Shown here one piece after another: positions 25,508-56,868 of a stretch of 64,000 nucleotides of DNA (positions are counted from its first letter, which is position 1; every line of letters starts with the position of its first letter). The notes under the pieces are model-generated. The model did not search any database and was not told the DNA's origin. It saw nothing but the letters and a program-made list of their open reading frames with translations. The DNA comes from Candidatus Hodarchaeota archaeon (GTDB lineage Archaea; Asgardarchaeota; Lokiarchaeia; Sigyniarchaeales; SOKP01): positions 6,146-70,145 of the forward strand of contig JBHLJZ010000002.1 in assembly GCA_048887165.1 (NCBI GenBank). The letters are read 5' to 3'. The translations under genes were made by a program, and so were the position numbers.

Positions 25508-26329
25508 TTATAAGCCTAATATTTCATTAGTTGAAAATATTTTTGCTTCTTTTGCTTTAGCTATATATTTAATGGCTTTAATTGCTCCGTTAGCAAAACA
25601 TTCTCTACTATGAGCTTGATGTCTTAATTCAATTCTTTCTCCAGGACCAGCGTATAAAACAGTATGATCTCCCACAATATCACCCCCACGAATAGCATGA
25701 ACTCCTATTTCGTTCTTAGCACCCACTTTCCTTTTATTAAGCCCCTTTGAACGTCCAAATTTTATAGTTTCCTCTGGATCGCACCCAAGAGTATCACAGA
25801 TTGTATTAGCAATCCTCAATGCTGTCCCTGAAGGCACATCTGCCTTGCGATGATGATGACTTTCAATTACTTCAATATCCCAATCAGCTAAATATTTTGT
25901 CAATAATGCAGCCATTTTAAATAGAATGTTAACACCAGTAGCCATATTAGGAGAAATTACAGCAGGAGCCTGGTTTTGTTTTACTAATATTTCAAATTCT
26001 TCATAAAACTCTTTTGACATCGCAGTAGTACCAATAACGCAACGAATGCCATTTCTTACACATATTATACAATTCTTTTCTGTTGCTTCTGCTACAGTAA
26101 AATCAACTGCAACATCTGGATTTGTTTCTTCAATAATTTTTTGGAGATTATTAACATTTGTGATTATAATATTATTTGGATCCTTTGAACTAACAAGCGA
26201 ACTTAATGGTTCTCCAATATGGGAAACATCACAAGCCGCAACAATTTGGATTTCTGGTTCATTTAAAGCTAATTCACTAATTAATTTACCCATGGAACCT
26301 GATGGGCCTAAAATTAACAATTTTATCAA
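25508..26329 (-). CDS. dapB: 4-hydroxy-tetrahydrodipicolinate reductase
   Basis: GPSGSMGK dinucleotide fold and ESHHHRKADVPSGTA signature. TTG start lies 25 nt after the dapA stop. Confidence 0.9.
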   Translation of the reverse strand: MIKLLILGPSGSMGKLISELALNEPEIQIVAACDVSHIGEPLSSLVSSKDPNNIIITNVNNLQKIIEETNPDVAVDFTVAEATEKNCIICVRNGIRCVIGTTAMSKEFYEEFEILVKQNQAPAVISPNMATGVNILFKMAALLTKYLADWDIEVIESHHHRKADVPSGTALRIANTICDTLGCDPEETIKFGRSKGLNKRKVGAKNEIGVHAIRGGDIVGDHTVLYAGPGERIELRHQAHSRECFANGAIKAIKYIAKAKEAKIFSTNEILGL

Positions 26330-26354
26330 ACTAATCTTACCACTACTTTCTCTT

Positions 26355-33031: not shown

Positions 33032-34108
33032 TTATTTTGAAAGTTCTTTTCTTAATTCTTCTGTTACTTTCTCAACTTTCTTATCTTTTATCCAATACCT
33101 TACTTTTGAAGATTTCAAAAATTTTTGCACTTTTTGGTTGAGTTCCTGTAGGTTTTTCCGATCTTTTTCACTTAGTTGTGGAATTTTTTCTAATTTTTTT
33201 GTAACTTTCTTAACTTCTTCTTCTATTATAGGTATTTCTATTTGTTGTTTTCCTTTAATTAATCTTTCCCGTAAAATCTCTTTAATATTTTTTACCCATC
33301 CTTGAATCCATGGATAAGTTCCTTGTTTACTTGGATCAATTATCTGGATTTTTTTCCTGTTTACGACTATTAAATCATCAGGGCATGAATTTTCACATGC
33401 TCCACAATAAAAGCAATCTTCTTCATTGCAAGCTATTTTCCCATACTTAACTACATCTTCTGCACTTTCAGGAATAAAAAAAGACTCAACTGGACAGATG
33501 TTTACACAGGCTTTACATCCTTGAGGATCACATTTGTAAAGCATATTTTTTTTTATTATTACTTCTCCTTCAATAGGAGAATCAATGTGAAAACATTTAG
33601 TAGGGCATTCTTTTTCGATTTTATAATATTCTTTTATACTATTTCTCTCTCTAAGAGTTAAGCATAAATTACAAATTTTATTGCCCTTGTCTTCAATGCA
33701 ATTTTCCATATCAATTATAAAAAATTTTCCTATTGATGGGAATTCATCTAACGAGATTTGTCCTTCAGGTTCAATATTTTCATGGAATGCATCATTAGGA
33801 CATACAACAGCACACAACATGCAGTAACAGCATTTATCATGGTCGATTAACAGTTTTGGATTGGAATCATCAATAATGTGTTGTGAGATTTCGGGAATAG
33901 GTCCGAGTTCAATAGCATCGACTGGACATACAAGTTTACATAAACTGCATCCAATGCATTTCTTTATGTCATAGATAAGCTTTTTCTTCACATCCTTAAA
34001 GTTCCAGTTAAAAATCAATTGGTCTGGCCCTAATTCTAGACTTTTTTCTATCGTATTTTCTATATCCTGTGATTTTTTGGAATTTGAATTTGAGCTAATC
34101 TTATTCAA
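33032..34108 (-). CDS. Polyferredoxin-like protein (multiple 4Fe-4S motifs) with K-rich C-terminal tail
   Basis: CIGCSLCKLVCP, CCYCMLCAVVCP, CKACVNICP and CFYCGACENSCP plus extra Cys pairs. TTG start. Confidence 0.75.
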   Translation of the reverse strand: MNKISSNSNSKKSQDIENTIEKSLELGPDQLIFNWNFKDVKKKLIYDIKKCIGCSLCKLVCPVDAIELGPIPEISQHIIDDSNPKLLIDHDKCCYCMLCAVVCPNDAFHENIEPEGQISLDEFPSIGKFFIIDMENCIEDKGNKICNLCLTLRERNSIKEYYKIEKECPTKCFHIDSPIEGEVIIKKNMLYKCDPQGCKACVNICPVESFFIPESAEDVVKYGKIACNEEDCFYCGACENSCPDDLIVVNRKKIQIIDPSKQGTYPWIQGWVKNIKEILRERLIKGKQQIEIPIIEEEVKKVTKKLEKIPQLSEKDRKNLQELNQKVQKFLKSSKVRYWIKDKKVEKVTEELRKELSK

Positions 34109-34308
34109 CCATTCTATGTATATTGTTATCTAATTATCATATAATTTAATTTCAAATAAGATTAATTATTATAGTTAGAAAGCCATCCAAAATTTTTTAA
34201 AACAAAATATCTATTTTATTACTTAAATTCTGCTGGAATGTCAACATGACATTTTTTTCTAATTCATGTAATAAAGTATTGATTTCATTAAAAATTAGAT
34301 GAATGAAA

Positions 34309-48924: not shown

Positions 48925-50763
48925 TTAAAAATCAGCTAATCCTAAAGATTTTAATTTATTCAAACTAGGCCTTCCTGTTACATTATCCCAATCTCTATAT
49001 TTATAGAAAAATTTCTTTAGGTTTTCGAAATCTGGAGATTTCCCGGCAGAACCACCACTATCAAATGGCTTTAACAAAATTTTAGGTATTTTGTCATCAG
49101 CAACAGTTAATCCCATTTTAAGATTAAACAACCTTTTTATAGTCAATAACCGCTCTCCATACAACTTAATTTCATCAATATCAAATTTTAAGCCAGTTGC
49201 GTTTTCAATTATGGCCGCAATCTGAGACGGTAATGGATTACAAAAAGAACACATTATCATGGAACTATATAAGGCACGATAATCCATATCTATGCTGCAG
49301 TATCTGGCCATTTCCTCATCGTCTCTATATTTATCAATAATTTCAATACCTAGTTCTTCTAAAGGCACACCTGCTAGTGTATAATAAGGATCACATGCAT
49401 TATGAGATGGACCTCTATAGGCGCCTCCCATTCCATAAGCGATTGCCATTCCGTAGTTAGAACGTAGATCATGATATGTGACTTCTAAACCTACGACTGT
49501 GGCTATTTCATCTTGAGAAATTTTAAATTTTTTTGCAAATTCATCAGAACCTTCTGCTAGAAGATTACCAATACCATCCCTATCTACAATTTTTTCCAAT
49601 AATGTTTCAACAATTTCAATATTTCCCCACTCAGGCAATAAACCGTCGATATCTTCAGATTTAATATTACCTTGTTCATAATGATACATTAAACACGCAA
49701 TTACTCCACCAGAACTAATTGTGTCTATCCCATAATCAAAACATTTCTTATTTAAATGGACGATTGCCTCAAGATTATCATTTAGGATTAAGCTACCAAA
49801 ACTAACTATAGATTCATATTCAGGTCCTTCTAATTCATCAGTTTTATATGGTCCATCTTTGATTGATACGCGACGACCACATCCTATTACACAAGAATGA
49901 CAAAATTTATTACCTGTTAAGATAGTTTCAGCCATAGTAGCACCAGAAATACTATATGATCCATCCCATTGAGCTTGAGAGAAGTATTTTATTGGTAATT
50001 CTCCTGTGGTATTATACATGTCTAAAACACCTGAAGTTCCTAATTCTTTAAGAACATCAGTTGCGAATGATGATTTCACATTATTTCGAGCTTTATTAAT
50101 AGCGTCTTTTAATTTTTCTGGATCATAAACATTTAGTTTGGTATTACTTCCTTTAACTACAATCCCTTTTAATTTTTTAGAACCTAATATTGCTCCCATA
50201 CCTGTTCTTCCTGCTGCTCTTTCTTCAGAGATGATATTAGCATATTTAACCAAATTCTCCCCTGCTGGACCTATACATGCAACCATAGCTTTTTGATTTC
50301 CAAATAATTCTTTCAATTTTTCAGTTGTATGATAAGTTCCTTTACCCCAAAGAAATTCAGCATCTTTTAATTTTACTTGTTCATCTCTAATTTCTAAATA
50401 TACTGGTTTATCTGAAGCACCTCTAATTATTAATCCATCGTATCCTGCTTTTTTAATTTCGGCACCAAACCAACTGCCACAATTAGATTCACCCCAAATA
50501 CCCGTATACGGAGATTTCGAACATACTACCCATCTGCCTGTATTAGGAGCGAAGGTTCCGTTTAATGGACCGGTCATTATCATTAAAATATTTTCTGGAG
50601 ATAATGGATCTGTTTCTTTATCTAATCTATCATATAGATAACGACACGCATAACCAGCTCCACCTAAGAAACTTTTGGCAATAATTTGATTAAGTGGCTC
50701 TTCGGCTATTTTTCCACTAGACAAATCTAAATTAAGTAATTTTCCTCTAAAAGCTTTTAAAAT
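48925..50763 (-). CDS. aor: Tungsten-type aldehyde:ferredoxin oxidoreductase (AOR family)
   Basis: AOR family throughout (GGAGYACRYL, GPLNGT, GPAGENLV, GPEYES, ...). The track starts at TTG 50724, but the conserved N-terminal strand (ILKAFRGKLLNLDLSSGKI, compare P. furiosus AOR GRFIRVNLSTGDI) lies upstream. The only plausible initiator is ATT at 50763, preceded by GGGTGAAGG SD. Confidence 0.88.
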   Translation of the reverse strand: MLKAFRGKLLNLDLSSGKIAEEPLNQIIAKSFLGGAGYACRYLYDRLDKETDPLSPENILMIMTGPLNGTFAPNTGRWVVCSKSPYTGIWGESNCGSWFGAEIKKAGYDGLIIRGASDKPVYLEIRDEQVKLKDAEFLWGKGTYHTTEKLKELFGNQKAMVACIGPAGENLVKYANIISEERAAGRTGMGAILGSKKLKGIVVKGSNTKLNVYDPEKLKDAINKARNNVKSSFATDVLKELGTSGVLDMYNTTGELPIKYFSQAQWDGSYSISGATMAETILTGNKFCHSCVIGCGRRVSIKDGPYKTDELEGPEYESIVSFGSLILNDNLEAIVHLNKKCFDYGIDTISSGGVIACLMYHYEQGNIKSEDIDGLLPEWGNIEIVETLLEKIVDRDGIGNLLAEGSDEFAKKFKISQDEIATVVGLEVTYHDLRSNYGMAIAYGMGGAYRGPSHNACDPYYTLAGVPLEELGIEIIDKYRDDEEMARYCSIDMDYRALYSSMIMCSFCNPLPSQIAAIIENATGLKFDIDEIKLYGERLLTIKRLFNLKMGLTVADDKIPKILLKPFDSGGSAGKSPDFENLKKFFYKYRDWDNVTGRPSLNKLKSLGLADF

Positions 50764-50910
50764 ACGCCTTCACCCTAAATTAATTTTAGCAAAGACTTTA
50801 ATTTTCATTTATTTTTTCTAACATATATTTTTATAAATTTAACTTTTATTTCTAGGCATTTATGATTCATTAAAAAAATTTTTTTTAAAAAAAGAATATC
50901 TTTAGTAAAT

Positions 50911-51414
50911 ATGAAAACCAAAGTAGATCTCAAATGGGATGACTTAGTCTCACCTACTATGACCCCTGAGGAGTATTTAAAACAGTTTGGAGATAAAATT
51001 GAATACAATTATGAGACATATAAACCTAAGAAAGATGTCCTTGAAAAGATTAATGAAATACTTGAAAATAAACAAGAAAAATTAAGAATTGTTGCTCTAG
51101 GGGCTGATTGGTGCCCAGATTGTTCAAGAAATGTCCCTCGTATGATCAAAATTGTAAAAATGCTTAGTAAGGATGTGGATTTAAAAATTCTTTATGGAAT
51201 TATGGTAGATGCTTTACATAAGCCAGGAGAGACTATTTGGCATAAAAAAAGATCTCCACCTGAAGCAGTCGATCCAAAATTCAATTTGAAAGCAATTCCA
51301 ACCTTTTATTTCTTTAATTCTGCCGGTGAATATTTAGGAGTGATTATTGAAAATCCCAAAATATCATCAACTTTAGAAGAAGACACTCTTGAAATTTTAC
51401 GGCATTTCTTATAA
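50911..51414 (+). CDS. Thioredoxin-fold protein with WCPDC active site
   Basis: GADWCPDCSRNVP CxxC motif and cis-Pro-like IPTFYFF region. Confidence 0.65.
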   Translation: MKTKVDLKWDDLVSPTMTPEEYLKQFGDKIEYNYETYKPKKDVLEKINEILENKQEKLRIVALGADWCPDCSRNVPRMIKIVKMLSKDVDLKILYGIMVDALHKPGETIWHKKRSPPEAVDPKFNLKAIPTFYFFNSAGEYLGVIIENPKISSTLEEDTLEILRHFL

Positions 51415-51486: not shown

Positions 51487-53523
51487 ATGTCTAAACTTAA
51501 AGTGAAAAAAGTAATTATTTTCAAACATGGAGTTTCTTATTACATTCTCGAAGGAATTGTAAAAGGATCTGATACTCTTGAACTAGAATTTAATCTTGAT
51601 GAGATGGATGATATTTTAAAATCTCTTTTTGTTCTAGATACAAGCGAAAAAGGTTATATAAGTTCAATATCTTATGATGCTGCCTTAGATACATCACAAT
51701 TATTAAAATCCATTATGTTAAATATTCCAGATAGAGATTCTCTTTCTTCACTTATTACACAAATCAAAGGAGCCAACGTTAATTTGACTATTGGAGGTGG
51801 AAAGAAGATCTCAGGGGCAATCATGGGTATAGAATTAGAAGAAAAATTTACCAAACAAGAAAAAATCACAGAAAAATTGCTAGTTTTCCTTCAAGATGAT
51901 GGTAATATTACAAAAATACCATTTTCTGATTTTAAATCATTCGAAATATTAAATGAGGAACTGAAAAAAGATTTAAATTTCTTTTTAAATACTGTAATTG
52001 CTGGTAAGAAAAAAGATGCTAAAAAAATCAAAATTAATTGTGAATCAGGCGGAGATGATGACATAGATAGAAATATTTACGTTTCTTATATTAGAGAGAG
52101 TCCTATATGGAAAACATCTTATCGCTTAATAATGAGTAAGCAACAAGCAGAAGAGAATAAATGTTTAATGTCTGGTTGGAGCCTCATTGAAAATACAACT
52201 AATCAAGACTGGAAAGATATAGAACTTTCATTAGTAGCTGGAATGCCCGTGTCTTTTAAATATGAATTTTATAGACCAATTTTTATTGAACGTCCAATAG
52301 TTCGCCCGCCTAAAGTATTAAGCGCTAGACCAACAGAGATCGAAGAAGGATTAGAAAAGGAGAGATTTGAAGAATATGCTATGGCTGAAGCTGAAGCAAT
52401 GCCAATAGCTAAGAAAAGCAAAGCAAGAATAGCGTCTTCACGACCCCCACCTGCTCCCGCAGGAGGTTTTGGGCGTTATCAAGCAGAAATGAGTGATGTT
52501 GATTTAATGGATAAAGTAAAAGCTCAAACTAAGACTCAAACTAAAGATTTAGGAGAATTATTTGAATACAACATTACAAATCCAGTTACAATTAAGAGAA
52601 AACAATCAGCTCTAGTTCCTATTTTAACTGAATCTATCAAAGCTTCGCGAGTTTTATTGTATAACAAAGATGAACATGATAAGAATCCTAATGCTTGCTT
52701 AGAAATAACAAATAACACGAATTTAACGTTGGAAAGGGGACCTGTTACGATTATATATGATGATAATCTAGCAGGAGAGGCCATTGTTCCTTTTCTCAAC
52801 AAAGGAGATACACGATTATTAAATTATGCTGTTGAACAAGCAGCTTTGATAACTCATGAACAAAAATCTGAAAATCTTAATGTCCATAAAGTTACTTTCG
52901 GAAGTGGTTATTCCTATGAGTATTACTTTTCCAATTTGATTACCGAATATAAGATAAGAAATAAAACAGAAGAAGTAAAGGTGCTATATCTTGATCATCC
53001 AAAAACATATGAATATAAATTTATCGAAAAGCCTATAGAACCAGAAGAAACTCCAAATTATTGGCGATTCAAATTGACTCTTAAACCTAAGGATGCTATA
53101 ACTTTTAAATTAAAAGAACAAAAAGAAAATTATTCAAGTAACTATATTTGGAACTGGTCAAAAGATGAGATCTTAAAAAGAGTAGGATTTTATGTAAAAC
53201 ATAAATTTATTGACGAAAAATTAGAGAACCAATTAAAAGAGATTGCAGATTTAATTCAGAATTTAAACGATATTAAGAGTAAGAGAGACAAATTACACAA
53301 TGAAAAAGATATGATGATTGAAGAGCAAGAAAGGTTACGGGAAAACATTTCCGTTTTAGGAGAGGATAGTCAATCATTAACATTAAAGGAGCGTTATATT
53401 AAAAAATTAGACGATCAAGAGAGTAGATTTGAAACCATTTCTACTGAGTTAAAGAAATTGGAAAAAGAAATAGACAACCTAAACAAACAAATTGAAGAAA
53501 AAATAAACAAACTAAAAGTATAA
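51487..53523 (+). CDS. DUF4139-like protein with C-terminal coiled coil
   Basis: The central WKTSYRLIM...GWSLIENTTNQDWKDIELSLVAGMP resembles the DUF4139 core as I recall it. The last ~110 aa are heptad-like and K/E-rich. Confidence 0.55.
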   Translation: MSKLKVKKVIIFKHGVSYYILEGIVKGSDTLELEFNLDEMDDILKSLFVLDTSEKGYISSISYDAALDTSQLLKSIMLNIPDRDSLSSLITQIKGANVNLTIGGGKKISGAIMGIELEEKFTKQEKITEKLLVFLQDDGNITKIPFSDFKSFEILNEELKKDLNFFLNTVIAGKKKDAKKIKINCESGGDDDIDRNIYVSYIRESPIWKTSYRLIMSKQQAEENKCLMSGWSLIENTTNQDWKDIELSLVAGMPVSFKYEFYRPIFIERPIVRPPKVLSARPTEIEEGLEKERFEEYAMAEAEAMPIAKKSKARIASSRPPPAPAGGFGRYQAEMSDVDLMDKVKAQTKTQTKDLGELFEYNITNPVTIKRKQSALVPILTESIKASRVLLYNKDEHDKNPNACLEITNNTNLTLERGPVTIIYDDNLAGEAIVPFLNKGDTRLLNYAVEQAALITHEQKSENLNVHKVTFGSGYSYEYYFSNLITEYKIRNKTEEVKVLYLDHPKTYEYKFIEKPIEPEETPNYWRFKLTLKPKDAITFKLKEQKENYSSNYIWNWSKDEILKRVGFYVKHKFIDEKLENQLKEIADLIQNLNDIKSKRDKLHNEKDMMIEEQERLRENISVLGEDSQSLTLKERYIKKLDDQESRFETISTELKKLEKEIDNLNKQIEEKINKLKV

Positions 53524-54081: not shown

Positions 54082-55377
54082 TTGCCTGGAAAAAAATTTG
54101 AAACCCAAGCTATTAATGATGAGATTTTAGAGAAATTCAGTCTTAAAAACCGTTATGCTTTTTTAAACAATAATTTAACAGCAATTTTATCTCCTAAAGA
54201 ATTTAATTTTTTACGAGAAGTTCAACGATTTTGTATGCGTTATGAGAAGAAAAATAATATCACTCATGGTCCAGATGAAGATATTTACGATTGGGTGCCA
54301 GCTTTTGGCGAACAAGGGTATATTACACGTCAACATACTTTTGATATATGCGATGTTCATTATGATGATTGGGGTTTAGCGGCAGATTTGATGAGAAATA
54401 TCGCTGTAGATATGTTTGATCCTCAGTTTGCTATGGGAGGGGGAGCTACAGTTTTAGCAATTAACCCCGTTTATGAACACCATGACAATATTCCCGTGAG
54501 ATTAGAAGCATTAAATGAAATGGTAACTGGTAAATCACCTGGCGCTATATTAATTACAGAACCAGAGCGTGGCTCTGATGCGGTACATCAATTAACAACG
54601 TGTGATGAACAAGAAGATGGAAGCTTTTTATTAAACGGAGTGAAAATCTATAATACAAATGCCCCAAAATCAAAATGGGTTGTAGCATATGCTACTGCTG
54701 AACAAAATAACGGAAATACTATGGCCCAATTTTTAATTAATACAAATTGGGATGGTTTTCAAGTTGAACGCGTTAACATTCCCTGGGTACCTAAGCTTTA
54801 TCTGGGAAAAGAGACTTTAACGAATCTAAAAGTTCCAAAAGAATTTGTACTGGGGGGAGTAGGAAAAGGTCGAGAACATTTATTTGAAGGTTTAGTACCT
54901 GAGAGAATCTCCATAGCAATCATGGGAGTAAGCGAATGTTGGGGAGCTCTGGCTCACGCAGTTATATATGCCAATAACCGCAAGCAATTTGATCAGGAGA
55001 TCCTTAAATTCCAAGGTGTGGGTTTTCTCTTAGCTGATTTATGGGCGAGAACTACTAATCTAACTATTGGTCTTTTGAAATTTTGTGAATCATATGATGA
55101 AAAGTACGAGAAATTTGGTGGAGAAATACCTAGAAATATCTCTCAAGCCATGGTCGCCTCGGCAAGCCAATTCAAATATCAAGCTGCTAAATTGTCTAGA
55201 AAAGTCTGTTATGAATGTGCTAATAATATGGGTGGCGCAGGATTATGTGACAATACATTAATGCATGATTATCTGAATATATCCAGAATCCAAGAAATTG
55301 TCGGAGGATCTAGACAAATCCAACAATATATCATGTCTCTCTCGTTACGCACCTTATACAAGATGTCGGTTGGCTAA
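54082..55377 (+). CDS. Acyl-CoA dehydrogenase family protein (paralog A)
   Basis: ACAD pattern (ITEPERGSDA, FLLNGVKIYNTNA, C-terminal IQEIVGGSRQIQ with candidate catalytic Glu). TTG start with GGAAGTGAAG SD. Confidence 0.85.
   Translation: MPGKKFETQAINDEILEKFSLKNRYAFLNNNLTAILSPKEFNFLREVQRFCMRYEKKNNITHGPDEDIYDWVPAFGEQGYITRQHTFDICDVHYDDWGLAADLMRNIAVDMFDPQFAMGGGATVLAINPVYEHHDNIPVRLEALNEMVTGKSPGAILITEPERGSDAVHQLTTCDEQEDGSFLLNGVKIYNTNAPKSKWVVAYATAEQNNGNTMAQFLINTNWDGFQVERVNIPWVPKLYLGKETLTNLKVPKEFVLGGVGKGREHLFEGLVPERISIAIMGVSECWGALAHAVIYANNRKQFDQEILKFQGVGFLLADLWARTTNLTIGLLKFCESYDEKYEKFGGEIPRNISQAMVASASQFKYQAAKLSRKVCYECANNMGGAGLCDNTLMHDYLNISRIQEIVGGSRQIQQYIMSLSLRTLYKMSVG
54964..55032. repeat. 69-bp perfect inverted repeat, arm 1 (inside ACAD paralog A)
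   Basis: ATATATGCCAATAACCGCAAGCAATTTGATCAGGAGATCCTTAAATTCCAAGGTGTGGGTTTTCTCTTA is identical to the reverse complement of 55921-55989. Confidence 0.9.
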
Positions 55378-55575: not shown

Positions 55576-56868
55576 CTATATCCCAGTCATTTTGTACAAT
55601 GTCCTCATTGCCATTGACATAATATACTGCTGGATCTGACGTGAGCCTCCAACAATTTCTTGGATTCTTGAAATATTTAACAAATCATGCATAAGGGTAT
55701 TATCAGACAATCCAGCACCTCCCATTAGGTTTGCAGCTTCATAGCAAATTTCTTTTGAAAGCGCCGTGCAGTGATATTTAAACATTGAAGCAGAAGCAAC
55801 CATTGCTTGGGAAATATTTTTAGGAAGTTCTCCACCAAATTTTTCTATTTTCTCATCGTATGCCTCACAGAAGCGTAATAATCCTAAGGTCACATTTGTC
55901 AATCGAGCCCATAAATCAGTTAAGAGAAAACCCACACCTTGGAATTTAAGGATCTCCTGATCAAATTGCTTGCGGTTATTGGCATATATAGCTGCATGAG
56001 CAATTGCATTCCAACATTGAGATGTTGAATCAAGAGCTATACCAATCCTTTCTGGAACTAATCCTTCAAATAAATGTTCACGTCCCTTTCCAATTCCTCC
56101 TAATACATATTCTTCTGGGACTTTTAAGTTTCTAAAATACTCATGTCCTAACCATACACGCGGAACCCATGGTATAAATACTCTTTCACATTCCCATCCA
56201 TCCCAGGAAGTATCAATTAAAAATTGGGCCATGGTATTTCCGTTATTTTGTTCAGCAGTAGCATAGGCTACAACATAACCCGCTTTGGGGGCATTTGTAT
56301 TGTAAATCTTTTCTCCATTTAACAAAAAGCTCCCATCACTCTGTTCTTCACAAAGGCTTAACATATGAACAGCATCAGAGCCACGCTCTGGTTCTGTAAT
56401 ACAAATAGCGCCTGGACTTTCACCAGTTACAAACTTTTTTAAAATTTCTAATCTCACGGGAATATTCTCATGATGATAATATACAGGATTTATTGCTAAA
56501 ATAGTTGCTCCGCCAGCCATTGAAAATTGAGGATCAAAAAAGTTCAGTGCTAAACACCTCATTAATTCAATTGCCATCCCGTAATCTTGAAAATTAAGAT
56601 CTACTTCTTCATAAGGATGAGCTCTTGAGATAAAACCTTCTTTTCCGAAATCTGGGATCCATTGGTAAAGATCTTCATCGGTTCGATGAGAAATTTCTTG
56701 TTTTTTCTCAAAACGTGTACAGAATTTTTCCGCTTGCTTTAAGAAATTAAAATGTTTAGGTTGAAGAATAGTCATTAAATTAGTGTTTAGAAAAGTATAA
56801 CGATTCTTAAGGCTTAATTTTTCAAGGATCTCATCATTAATAGCCTGACTCATAAATTTAGAAGCCAA
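55576..56868 (-). CDS. Acyl-CoA dehydrogenase family protein (paralog B)
   Basis: Collinear with paralog A, roughly 70 percent identical by eye. TTG start with GAGGGATG SD. Confidence 0.85.
   Translation of the reverse strand: MASKFMSQAINDEILEKLSLKNRYTFLNTNLMTILQPKHFNFLKQAEKFCTRFEKKQEISHRTDEDLYQWIPDFGKEGFISRAHPYEEVDLNFQDYGMAIELMRCLALNFFDPQFSMAGGATILAINPVYYHHENIPVRLEILKKFVTGESPGAICITEPERGSDAVHMLSLCEEQSDGSFLLNGEKIYNTNAPKAGYVVAYATAEQNNGNTMAQFLIDTSWDGWECERVFIPWVPRVWLGHEYFRNLKVPEEYVLGGIGKGREHLFEGLVPERIGIALDSTSQCWNAIAHAAIYANNRKQFDQEILKFQGVGFLLTDLWARLTNVTLGLLRFCEAYDEKIEKFGGELPKNISQAMVASASMFKYHCTALSKEICYEAANLMGGAGLSDNTLMHDLLNISRIQEIVGGSRQIQQYIMSMAMRTLYKMTGI
55921..55989. repeat. 69-bp perfect inverted repeat, arm 2 (inside ACAD paralog B)
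   Basis: Reverse complement is identical to 54964-55032. Confidence 0.9.

Follow-up and report, generated by a model that had tools for sequence, protein, structure and literature searches.

A predicted ATT start codon behind a strong Shine-Dalgarno element in aldehyde:ferredoxin oxidoreductase genes of Asgard archaea

We analysed a 64-kb stretch of a Candidatus Hodarchaeota genome (assembly GCA_048887165.1, contig JBHLJZ010000002.1; hereafter the window), which encodes on its minus strand an enzyme of the aldehyde:ferredoxin oxidoreductase (AOR) family. A program-made list of open reading frames (ORFs) begins this gene at TTG 50724, giving 599 aa. We consider it likely, with a probability of roughly 85%, that translation starts 13 codons further upstream, at an ATT codon, as Shine-Dalgarno (SD)-directed initiation on AUU (Table 1). 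The frame reads TTA GGG TGA (50772-50770) AGG CGT ATT (50763-50761) TTA AAA GCT TTT AGA GGA AAA TTA CTT AAT TTA GAT TTG (50724-50722) TCT AGT GGA AAA, which translates as a stop followed by RR, ILKAFRGKLLNLD and LSSGK. From the TGA at 50772 to the TTG at 50724 there is no ATG, GTG or TTG in frame, and the only near-cognate codons are the ATT and an AGG that abuts the SD element. The GGTGA core of that element, part of GGGTGAAGG at 50775-50767, ends 6 nt ahead of the ATT. An earlier sequence-only reading of the window had proposed that AGG, CGT and ATT follow the upstream TGA, that ATT behind an SD-like element is the sole plausible initiator and that the 13 codons belong to the gene. The frame reads exactly so, and the absence of a canonical codon before the TTG together with the position of the GGTGA core bears out the choice of initiator; an in-frame ATG upstream of the TGA, at 50808-50806, had been omitted.

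The window has a GC content of 30%, at which about 16 stop-free codons in a row are common, and the open frame by itself is not significant. The 13-codon extension is significant because of homology. When the 612-aa product was searched against the PDB with phmmer, P. furiosus AOR was the best match (1AOR, E = 2e-111); query residues 7, 5 and 4 aligned with residue 6 of 1AOR, residue 4 of 9MQX and residue 3 of 9G7J, respectively. That is, judged from these alignments, an ATT start would reproduce the N-terminus of solved AORs within one residue, and the P. furiosus N-terminus quoted in the sequence-only reading agrees with the 1AOR alignment. The Pfam domain AFOR_N (PF02730) covered residues 7-205, equivalent to profile positions 1-198 of 199 (264 bits, cut-off 29.8), and a complete match, with profile position 1 at residue 7, was obtained solely with the ATT start. 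AFOR_C (PF01314, domains 2 and 3) follows at residues 222-609 (profile positions 3-385 of 385, 341 bits). The Cys ligands of the [4Fe-4S] cluster are present in the 1AOR alignment (query nkfChsCvigCgr versus nkpCyaCpigCgr, imCsf versus glClf), and C288, C291, C295 and C505 were invariant in 27 homologues; the ligands of P. furiosus AOR we take to be C288, C291, C295 and C494 (1AOR numbering). By both domains and these ligands the product is assigned to the AOR family, with a tungsto-bispterin cofactor and aldehyde oxidation as predicted properties. The solved tungsten enzymes (1AOR, 9MQX and 9G7J) resemble it in being collinear over the full length, with AFOR_N plus AFOR_C, a CxxCxxxC motif plus a distal Cys and an N-terminal β-hairpin, but they align about one residue out of register with the ATT product.

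An AlphaFold2 model of the 612-aa protein, built on 27 homologues, was confident over its first 30 residues (block mean predicted local distance difference test (pLDDT) values of 80, 92 and 87) and placed a β-hairpin there, with strands at residues 8-13 and 18-23. Together with the phmmer and AFOR_N results, this hairpin bears out the earlier claim that the 13 codons are part of the gene. Since TTG 50724 is codon 14 and β-strand 1 spans residues 8-13, a TTG start would therefore remove the first strand. Under such a start, the 599-aa product would open (M)SSGKIAEEPLNQIIAK, and the 13 codons would be untranslated leader. TTG is an accepted archaeal start codon, the Prokaryotic Genome Annotation Pipeline (PGAP) uses it for three other genes of the window, and gene callers picked comparable fallback starts in the relatives P0002-P0004. 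But there is no SD ahead of TTG 50724, the Pfam and PDB alignments begin upstream of it, the 13 codons are conserved as protein with synonymous changes, and the fallback position differs in every relative, some orthologues having about 60 codons without any canonical start. We regard a TTG start as very improbable.

The DNA of close relatives points to the same start column. Relatives at 75-79% identity open MLKAFRGKLL or MLKSFRGKIL, with the Met exactly at the ATT column, and of the 12 residues that follow the start, 10 match those of Met-starting relatives at 76-79% identity. The three closest relatives (83-84% identity) are called at 599-601 aa; for two of them, L001 and L003, the DNA was read (P0004 is the third). 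L001 reads ggTGA ATA TCT ATT TTA AAG GGT TTT AGG GGA and L003 reads ggTGA ATT TTT ATT TTA AAG AGT TTT AGA GGA, each with GGTGA, 6 nt and ATT at the same column. The comparison of this codon in close orthologues, which the sequence-only reading had suggested as a check, thus yielded ATT behind GGTGA and not an ATG that would betray an assembly error. L005 (79% identity) has ATG at the ATT column; the ATG found there in more distant orthologues confirms that this is the start column. Compared with L001, L003 and L005, the 13 codons differ mostly by synonymous third-position changes (AAA/AAG, AGA/AGG, GGA/GGG, TTA/CTA) and so behave as coding sequence.

The ATT could be imagined to stem from an ordinary ATG, through faulty sequencing or assembly or through a recent lesion, as ATG is one substitution away and a canonical start stands at or near the column in 16 of 40 orthologues. 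The chance of this is negligible. A second public assembly (GCA_048886165.1, locus L172) has the identical leader and ATT, and the closest relatives show ATT at the same column in independent metagenome assemblies (L001/L002 and L003/L004), as do more than 20 species-level Asgard genomes. The best database match, the NCBI protein P0001 from a Candidatus Hodarchaeota metagenome-assembled genome (MAG), is 100% identical over 612 aa and begins MLKAFRGK. The NCBI pipeline therefore already starts this AOR at the ATT, and for this gene the ATT start is not new.

We then looked at the wider distribution of such starts, using ATH for ATT, ATC or ATA. A scan with one genome per species yielded 46 loci, about 40 of them Asgard AOR orthologues at 57-78% identity, and a start codon was assigned in 40 Asgard orthologues (scan loci plus close relatives, 57-84% identity). 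ATH occupied the start column in 24 of these (ATT in about 19, ATA in 3, ATC in 2), versus 16 with ATG or GTG at the column or one to two codons upstream. ATG accounts for 14 of the latter, including L024 and L032, in which an Ile codon is retained one or two codons downstream of the ATG; each of the 2 GTG starts lies one codon upstream of a retained ATT. Internal Ile codons of the same genes are ATT in 52%, ATA in 34% and ATC in 14%, so ATT is over-represented among the ATH starts. On a midpoint-rooted neighbour-joining tree, ATH was found in every deep clade, and Fitch parsimony reconstructed ATH at the root, at a cost of at least 9 changes. The non-Asgard AORs (Desulfobacterales, Woesearchaeota, Methanosarcinales) start ordinarily with ATG or GTG, which lies near the column in the five loci alignable through this region, and the ATH start was rejected as a trait of the whole AOR family. 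A degenerate-pattern metagenome scan (codons 2-8) returned mostly random AT-rich matches; the two true AORs among the matches listed start with ATG and TTG, with weak SDs in both. In the literature that we searched, with incomplete coverage, we found no account of Asgard AOR genes with a conserved ATT start. These comparisons portray the ATH start with its SD as a trait that is ancestral in the Asgard AOR orthogroup, specific to this gene and widely mis-annotated, and as such it does seem new.

The SD element is the second conserved part of the arrangement. GGTGA occurs 66 times on both strands of the window, and the chance of finding one at a spacing of 4-8 nt is p ~0.003. SD energies were calculated as hybridisation of the 20 nt upstream of a start with the archaeal 16S rRNA 3' end GGAUCACCUCCU; the AOR gene reached -8.5 kcal/mol, the 8th strongest of 52 window genes. 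Across 18 ATH-start loci the GGTG block was, besides the ATH codon itself, the only conserved upstream element. In many loci the TGA of GGTGA is an in-frame stop, which excludes an upstream extension there; other loci carry GGTGC, GGTGT or GGTGG and lack the TGA. The median SD energy was -8.3 kcal/mol for ATH starts versus -4.7 kcal/mol for ATG/GTG starts (Mann-Whitney p = 2e-4), and a GGTG core was present in 18 of 23 ATH loci versus 4 of 15 canonical loci (Fisher p = 0.003). When loci were compared as nine phylogenetically independent pairs, the stronger SD belonged to the ATH member in 7 (Wilcoxon one-sided p = 0.02). The association between SD strength and start codon is real but modest. 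L005, sister to the clade of the window, has ATG and has lost GGTGA; because lineages that switched to ATG tend to have lost the SD, the weak codon seems to depend on it. This pattern suggests that the initiation rate is under stabilising selection and that an AUU with a strong SD does about as well as an AUG whose SD is weak or missing.

Upstream of the SD, close relatives share a block AAATAAAT[G/A]AAAATTGAA about 27 nt downstream of the TATA-like TTTATAAAAATATAT. Because of the usual spacing of archaeal TATA boxes, the transcript would start near 50807, giving a leader of about 44 nt. This bears on ATG 50808, from which translation could run through UGA 50772 by readthrough or recoding (e.g. 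selenocysteine), or could yield a mini-ORF, MKIKVFAKINLG and a stop (12 codons, perhaps leaderless), followed by reinitiation at the AUU 6 nt downstream. The ATG shares the AOR frame and lies close to the predicted 5' end of the transcript, and its mini-ORF terminates within the SD; in L001, too, a mini-ORF opened by an ATG runs to the TGA of the SD. Termination-reinitiation over very short distances has reportedly been seen in archaea. But the ATG is ATA in L005, in L001 and L003 the first mini-ORF is just 4 codons long and stops well short of the SD, and the more distant loci have no equivalent. Most ATH-start loci lack an upstream ATG within 45 nt, the loci with GGTGC, GGTGT or GGTGG have no TGA to terminate at, the upstream peptide is not conserved, and an extension would exceed the N-terminus of every solved AOR. 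Conserved coding across the in-frame UGA, as recoding would demand, was not found. With ATA in L005 and a mini-ORF of varying length, ATG 50808 was rejected as start, as readthrough extension and as conserved upstream ORF, and we consider its use quite improbable. The leader gave no Rfam match at E ≤ 1, folded no better than its shuffles (z = +0.70) and yielded 0 pairs in RNAalifold over 18 loci. A scan for sigma-70 promoters, a bacterial model and irrelevant for an archaeon, showed no enrichment.

Table 1. Features of the AOR start region and its surroundings in the window
Feature	Position	Strand	Remarks
AOR-family coding sequence, corrected, predicted start ATT	48925..50763	-	612 codons + stop; AFOR_N, AFOR_C; identical to NCBI P0001
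ATT initiation codon (AUU), presumably read as Met by initiator tRNA	50761..50763	-	column of Met1 in ATG-start orthologues
Disputed 13 codons ILKAFRGKLLNLD, predicted N-terminal tail and β-strand 1 of AFOR_N	50725..50763	-	homology, Pfam, model
TTG, start in the ORF list, probably internal Leu14 codon	50722..50724	-	no SD upstream; column TTG/TTA/CTT in close relatives
SD element GGGTGA, core GGTGA 50774-50770	50770..50775	-	contains TGA 50772-50770, the in-frame stop closing the AOR frame upstream
Spacer AGGCGT (6 nt) between SD and ATT	50764..50769	-	spacing 5-7 nt in most orthologues
TATA-box-like TTTATAAAAATATAT, putative archaeal promoter of AOR	50823..50837	-	conserved in the window, L003 and L005, partly in L001
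Conserved block AAATAAATGAAAATTAAA with in-frame ATG 50808-50806	50797..50814	-	probably promoter or element near the transcription start, not an upstream ORF start
Thioredoxin_9-family gene (167 aa), divergent neighbour of AOR	50911..51414	+	bounds 147-bp intergenic region; synteny conserved

The ATH start is specific to AOR in the DNA that we sampled. The survey comprised 252 kb (the window plus 42 Asgard loci with about 190 kb of flanks) and 152 open frames that reach 150 codons or more and have an intact 5' end. Wherever GGTG, 5-9 nt and ATH stood at the 5' end of a frame, that frame was an AOR, and SD plus ATH was found in 0 of the 115 non-AOR long open frames. In nearly all other window genes an ATG follows the upstream stop within a few codons. 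A genome-wide habit of ATT starts was rejected for the sampled DNA on these grounds, the three other window genes without an early ATG being annotated with TTG. About a dozen of the 52 window genes have an appreciable SD and about 40 have none. Together with the ATGs close to the upstream stops, this suggests that initiation in this Hodarchaeota genome is normally leaderless or SD-less. In its scarcity of SDs the window agrees with a Lokiarchaeal genome in which SDs are not prevalent (PMC7531240). Because most window genes lack an SD, an SD-anchored census of start codons in the window was uninformative. The strongest SDs of the window precede internal genes of apparent operons (1438, 1971, 3629 and 44596).

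How would an AUU be used? The GGGUGA of the approximately 44-nt leader would pair with the 3' end of 16S rRNA and thereby set the AUU, 6 nt downstream, in the P site. Initiator Met-tRNA would read it as a near-cognate codon, presumably with Met as first residue, and the product would be the full-length 612-aa enzyme opening Met-Leu-Lys-Ala-Phe-Arg-Gly-Lys. Speculatively, the AUU would render AOR synthesis sensitive to start-codon stringency exerted by aIF1; synthesis could be tuned in this way because aIF1, the homologue of eIF1, discriminates against AUU. Taken further, AUU, AUC or AUA behind a strong SD might form a device by which Asgard archaea control translation, ancestral, kept by selection and tuned by stringency, a proposal that we put forward as doubtful.

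Several observations weigh against these readings, be it the SD-directed start or its regulatory use. The anti-SD GGAUCACCUCCU is the general archaeal 16S 3' end, assumed here rather than taken from the host, and the window has no rRNA gene. The mean pLDDT over the whole AlphaFold2 model was 66, which is moderate only. A sign test on the nine pairs gave p = 0.09, two pairs being reversed, and the link between SD and codon is modest after phylogeny. With at least 9 switches of start codon, ATH is not strictly kept, which fits near-neutrality as well as selection. In Sulfolobus solfataricus, 30S complexes bind an AUU mRNA unless aIF1 is present (PMC4705826). As aIF1 reportedly excludes AUU in that organism, efficient use of the codon in Asgard archaea would need a strong SD or a relaxed stringency.

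The AUU may also be the start and carry no regulatory meaning. At 30% GC, strong AT mutation pressure would have let ATG drift to ATT in an ancestor, the weak codon would be tolerated as long as a strong SD sustains sufficient initiation, and the flips would be near-neutral. The tree with its state changes is in line with this, SD strength co-varies with the codon as compensation predicts, and the leader lacks conserved RNA structure or a known RNA element. Yet the same tolerance was seen in none of the 115 other long open frames, so AOR is somehow particular; ATT is over-represented against ATA and ATC relative to Ile codon usage; and ATH is kept in lineages that are 57-70% identical in protein, although a single T-to-G change restores ATG. 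We regard a start devoid of regulatory meaning as a serious possibility, somewhat short of even odds. The switches and the SD compensation fit a weak codon that is tolerated thanks to the SD as well as one under selection, be it to throttle expression or to make it conditional on aIF1; gene specificity and the ATT bias favour some selection. If the codon acts as a control device, Asgard archaea would apply a eukaryote-like near-cognate-start logic to an SD-led mRNA, and this would be the first conserved non-AUG regulatory start described in archaea. If it is merely tolerated, what remains is an annotation correction that NCBI has already made for this genome. SDs are mostly absent from Asgard genomes. 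A non-AUG start kept in one gene over 57-84% identity and coupled to SD strength offers a natural experiment on the trade-off between start codon and SD in archaea, and ATH-start AORs provide a concrete substrate for aIF1-dependent stringency in the lineage closest to eukaryotes.

Prokaryotic genes with an AUU start include infC, pcnB, ebpA and atubA. The features that mark such genes were found here as well: no canonical start before the conserved N-terminus, a ribosome-binding site at functional distance and retention in orthologues. For ebpA of Enterococcus faecalis, which had been mis-annotated at a downstream ATG, the ATT start was proven by mutagenesis and lacZ fusions, and it attenuates expression compared with an engineered ATG (PMC4447247). 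As in AOR, a downstream canonical annotation was wrong and the true upstream ATT was deduced in silico from the sequence; unlike AOR, ebpA is bacterial, depends on IF3-based fidelity and is experimentally proven, whereas the archaeal AOR start is predicted from sequence and supported by conservation over a phylum-level group. The classic case is the AUU start of bacterial infC, which encodes IF3 (PMC4705826). Like AOR, infC has kept the AUU over long distances in one gene, and expression is expected to follow start-codon stringency. But the infC product is itself the fidelity factor and autoregulates, while AOR is a tungsten/pterin oxidoreductase with no apparent loop, and the archaeal factor is aIF1 rather than IF3. 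With an oxidoreductase as product, infC-type autoregulation does not apply; AOR may be a passive target of stringency control. In the Lokiarchaeial tubulin gene atubA, an ATT start has likewise been inferred (PMC13394414). There, too, β-strand 1 was missing from the deposited protein; it is restored by an upstream ATT that a plausible spacing separates from a ribosome-binding site. The atubA case concerns one gene in one genome and stands in a Methods section, whereas the ATH start of AOR was mapped over 40 orthologues, with analyses of ancestral state, SD and specificity.

The start codon has consequences for databases. AOR is a common catabolic enzyme of Asgard archaea, and 52 of the 120 best homologue clusters (~43%) were shorter than full length. 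Each of the 15 short entries inspected has its first residue within the conserved N-terminal domain, and in 5 this is a Met of LMIMTGPLNG. In two entries of about 550 aa, L173 and L175, the frame stays open and conserved for 62-64 codons ahead of the called start, and this stretch opens with ATT or ATA directly behind GAAGTGA or GAGGTGA; it holds no canonical start in L175 and one in L173, two codons ahead of the called Met. A third entry of that length, L174, has 84 open codons with one canonical start at codon 66. Judging from the DNA of the cases checked (n=5), the shortening is due to a gene caller unable to use ATT, the true start being an ATT or ATA further upstream. The affected entries are short of 11-64 residues, in the extreme the entire first β-hairpin and helix of AFOR_N, and at least one NCBI genome record is among them (P0116, 549 aa, Lokiarchaeota). 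Such truncated entries distort structure prediction, domain boundaries and metabolic reconstructions of Asgard archaea. One ATT-start orthologue, L016 (DATKTW010000038.1; 72% identical, GAGGTGA SD), is an Asgard-type AOR deposited as 'Candidatus Nanopelagicaceae bacterium', an actinobacterial family; the name probably reflects a binning or contamination error in that MAG.

Besides AOR, three window genes lack an early ATG, all of them annotated with TTG: an acyl-CoA dehydrogenase (54082), a 4Fe-4S protein (34108) and DapB (26329). The acyl-CoA dehydrogenase gene at 54082-55377 (+) has no ATG in its first 50 codons, and its TTG 54082 falls in the Met column of relatives. A convergent paralogue at 55576-56868 (-) shares the N-terminal motif QAINDEILEK; its first canonical codon is TTG 56868, but ATG 56853 (MSQAINDEILEK) looks like the real start. 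Neither the 4Fe-4S-binding protein (33032-34108, -) nor DapB, a 4-hydroxy-tetrahydrodipicolinate reductase (25508-26329, -), has an SD near its TTG. In-frame ATA or ATT codons lie upstream of them, at 34129, 34123 and 34117 in the former and at 26335 in the latter, and are unused in public annotation.

The gene order beside AOR is kept in close relatives, with the Thioredoxin_9 protein followed by a 678-aa protein (51487-53523, +; 679 aa in L001) that has no Pfam match and a coiled-coil-like C-terminus rich in Lys and Glu. Within the intergenic region, a block at 50856-50878 (minus-strand sense TTTTTTTAATGAATCATAAATGC) is almost invariant in the window, L001, L003 and L005, and the adjacent intergenic sequence varies. 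It contains a small palindrome, ATGA-A-TCAT, and might bind a shared regulator or serve as promoter of the thioredoxin-like gene.

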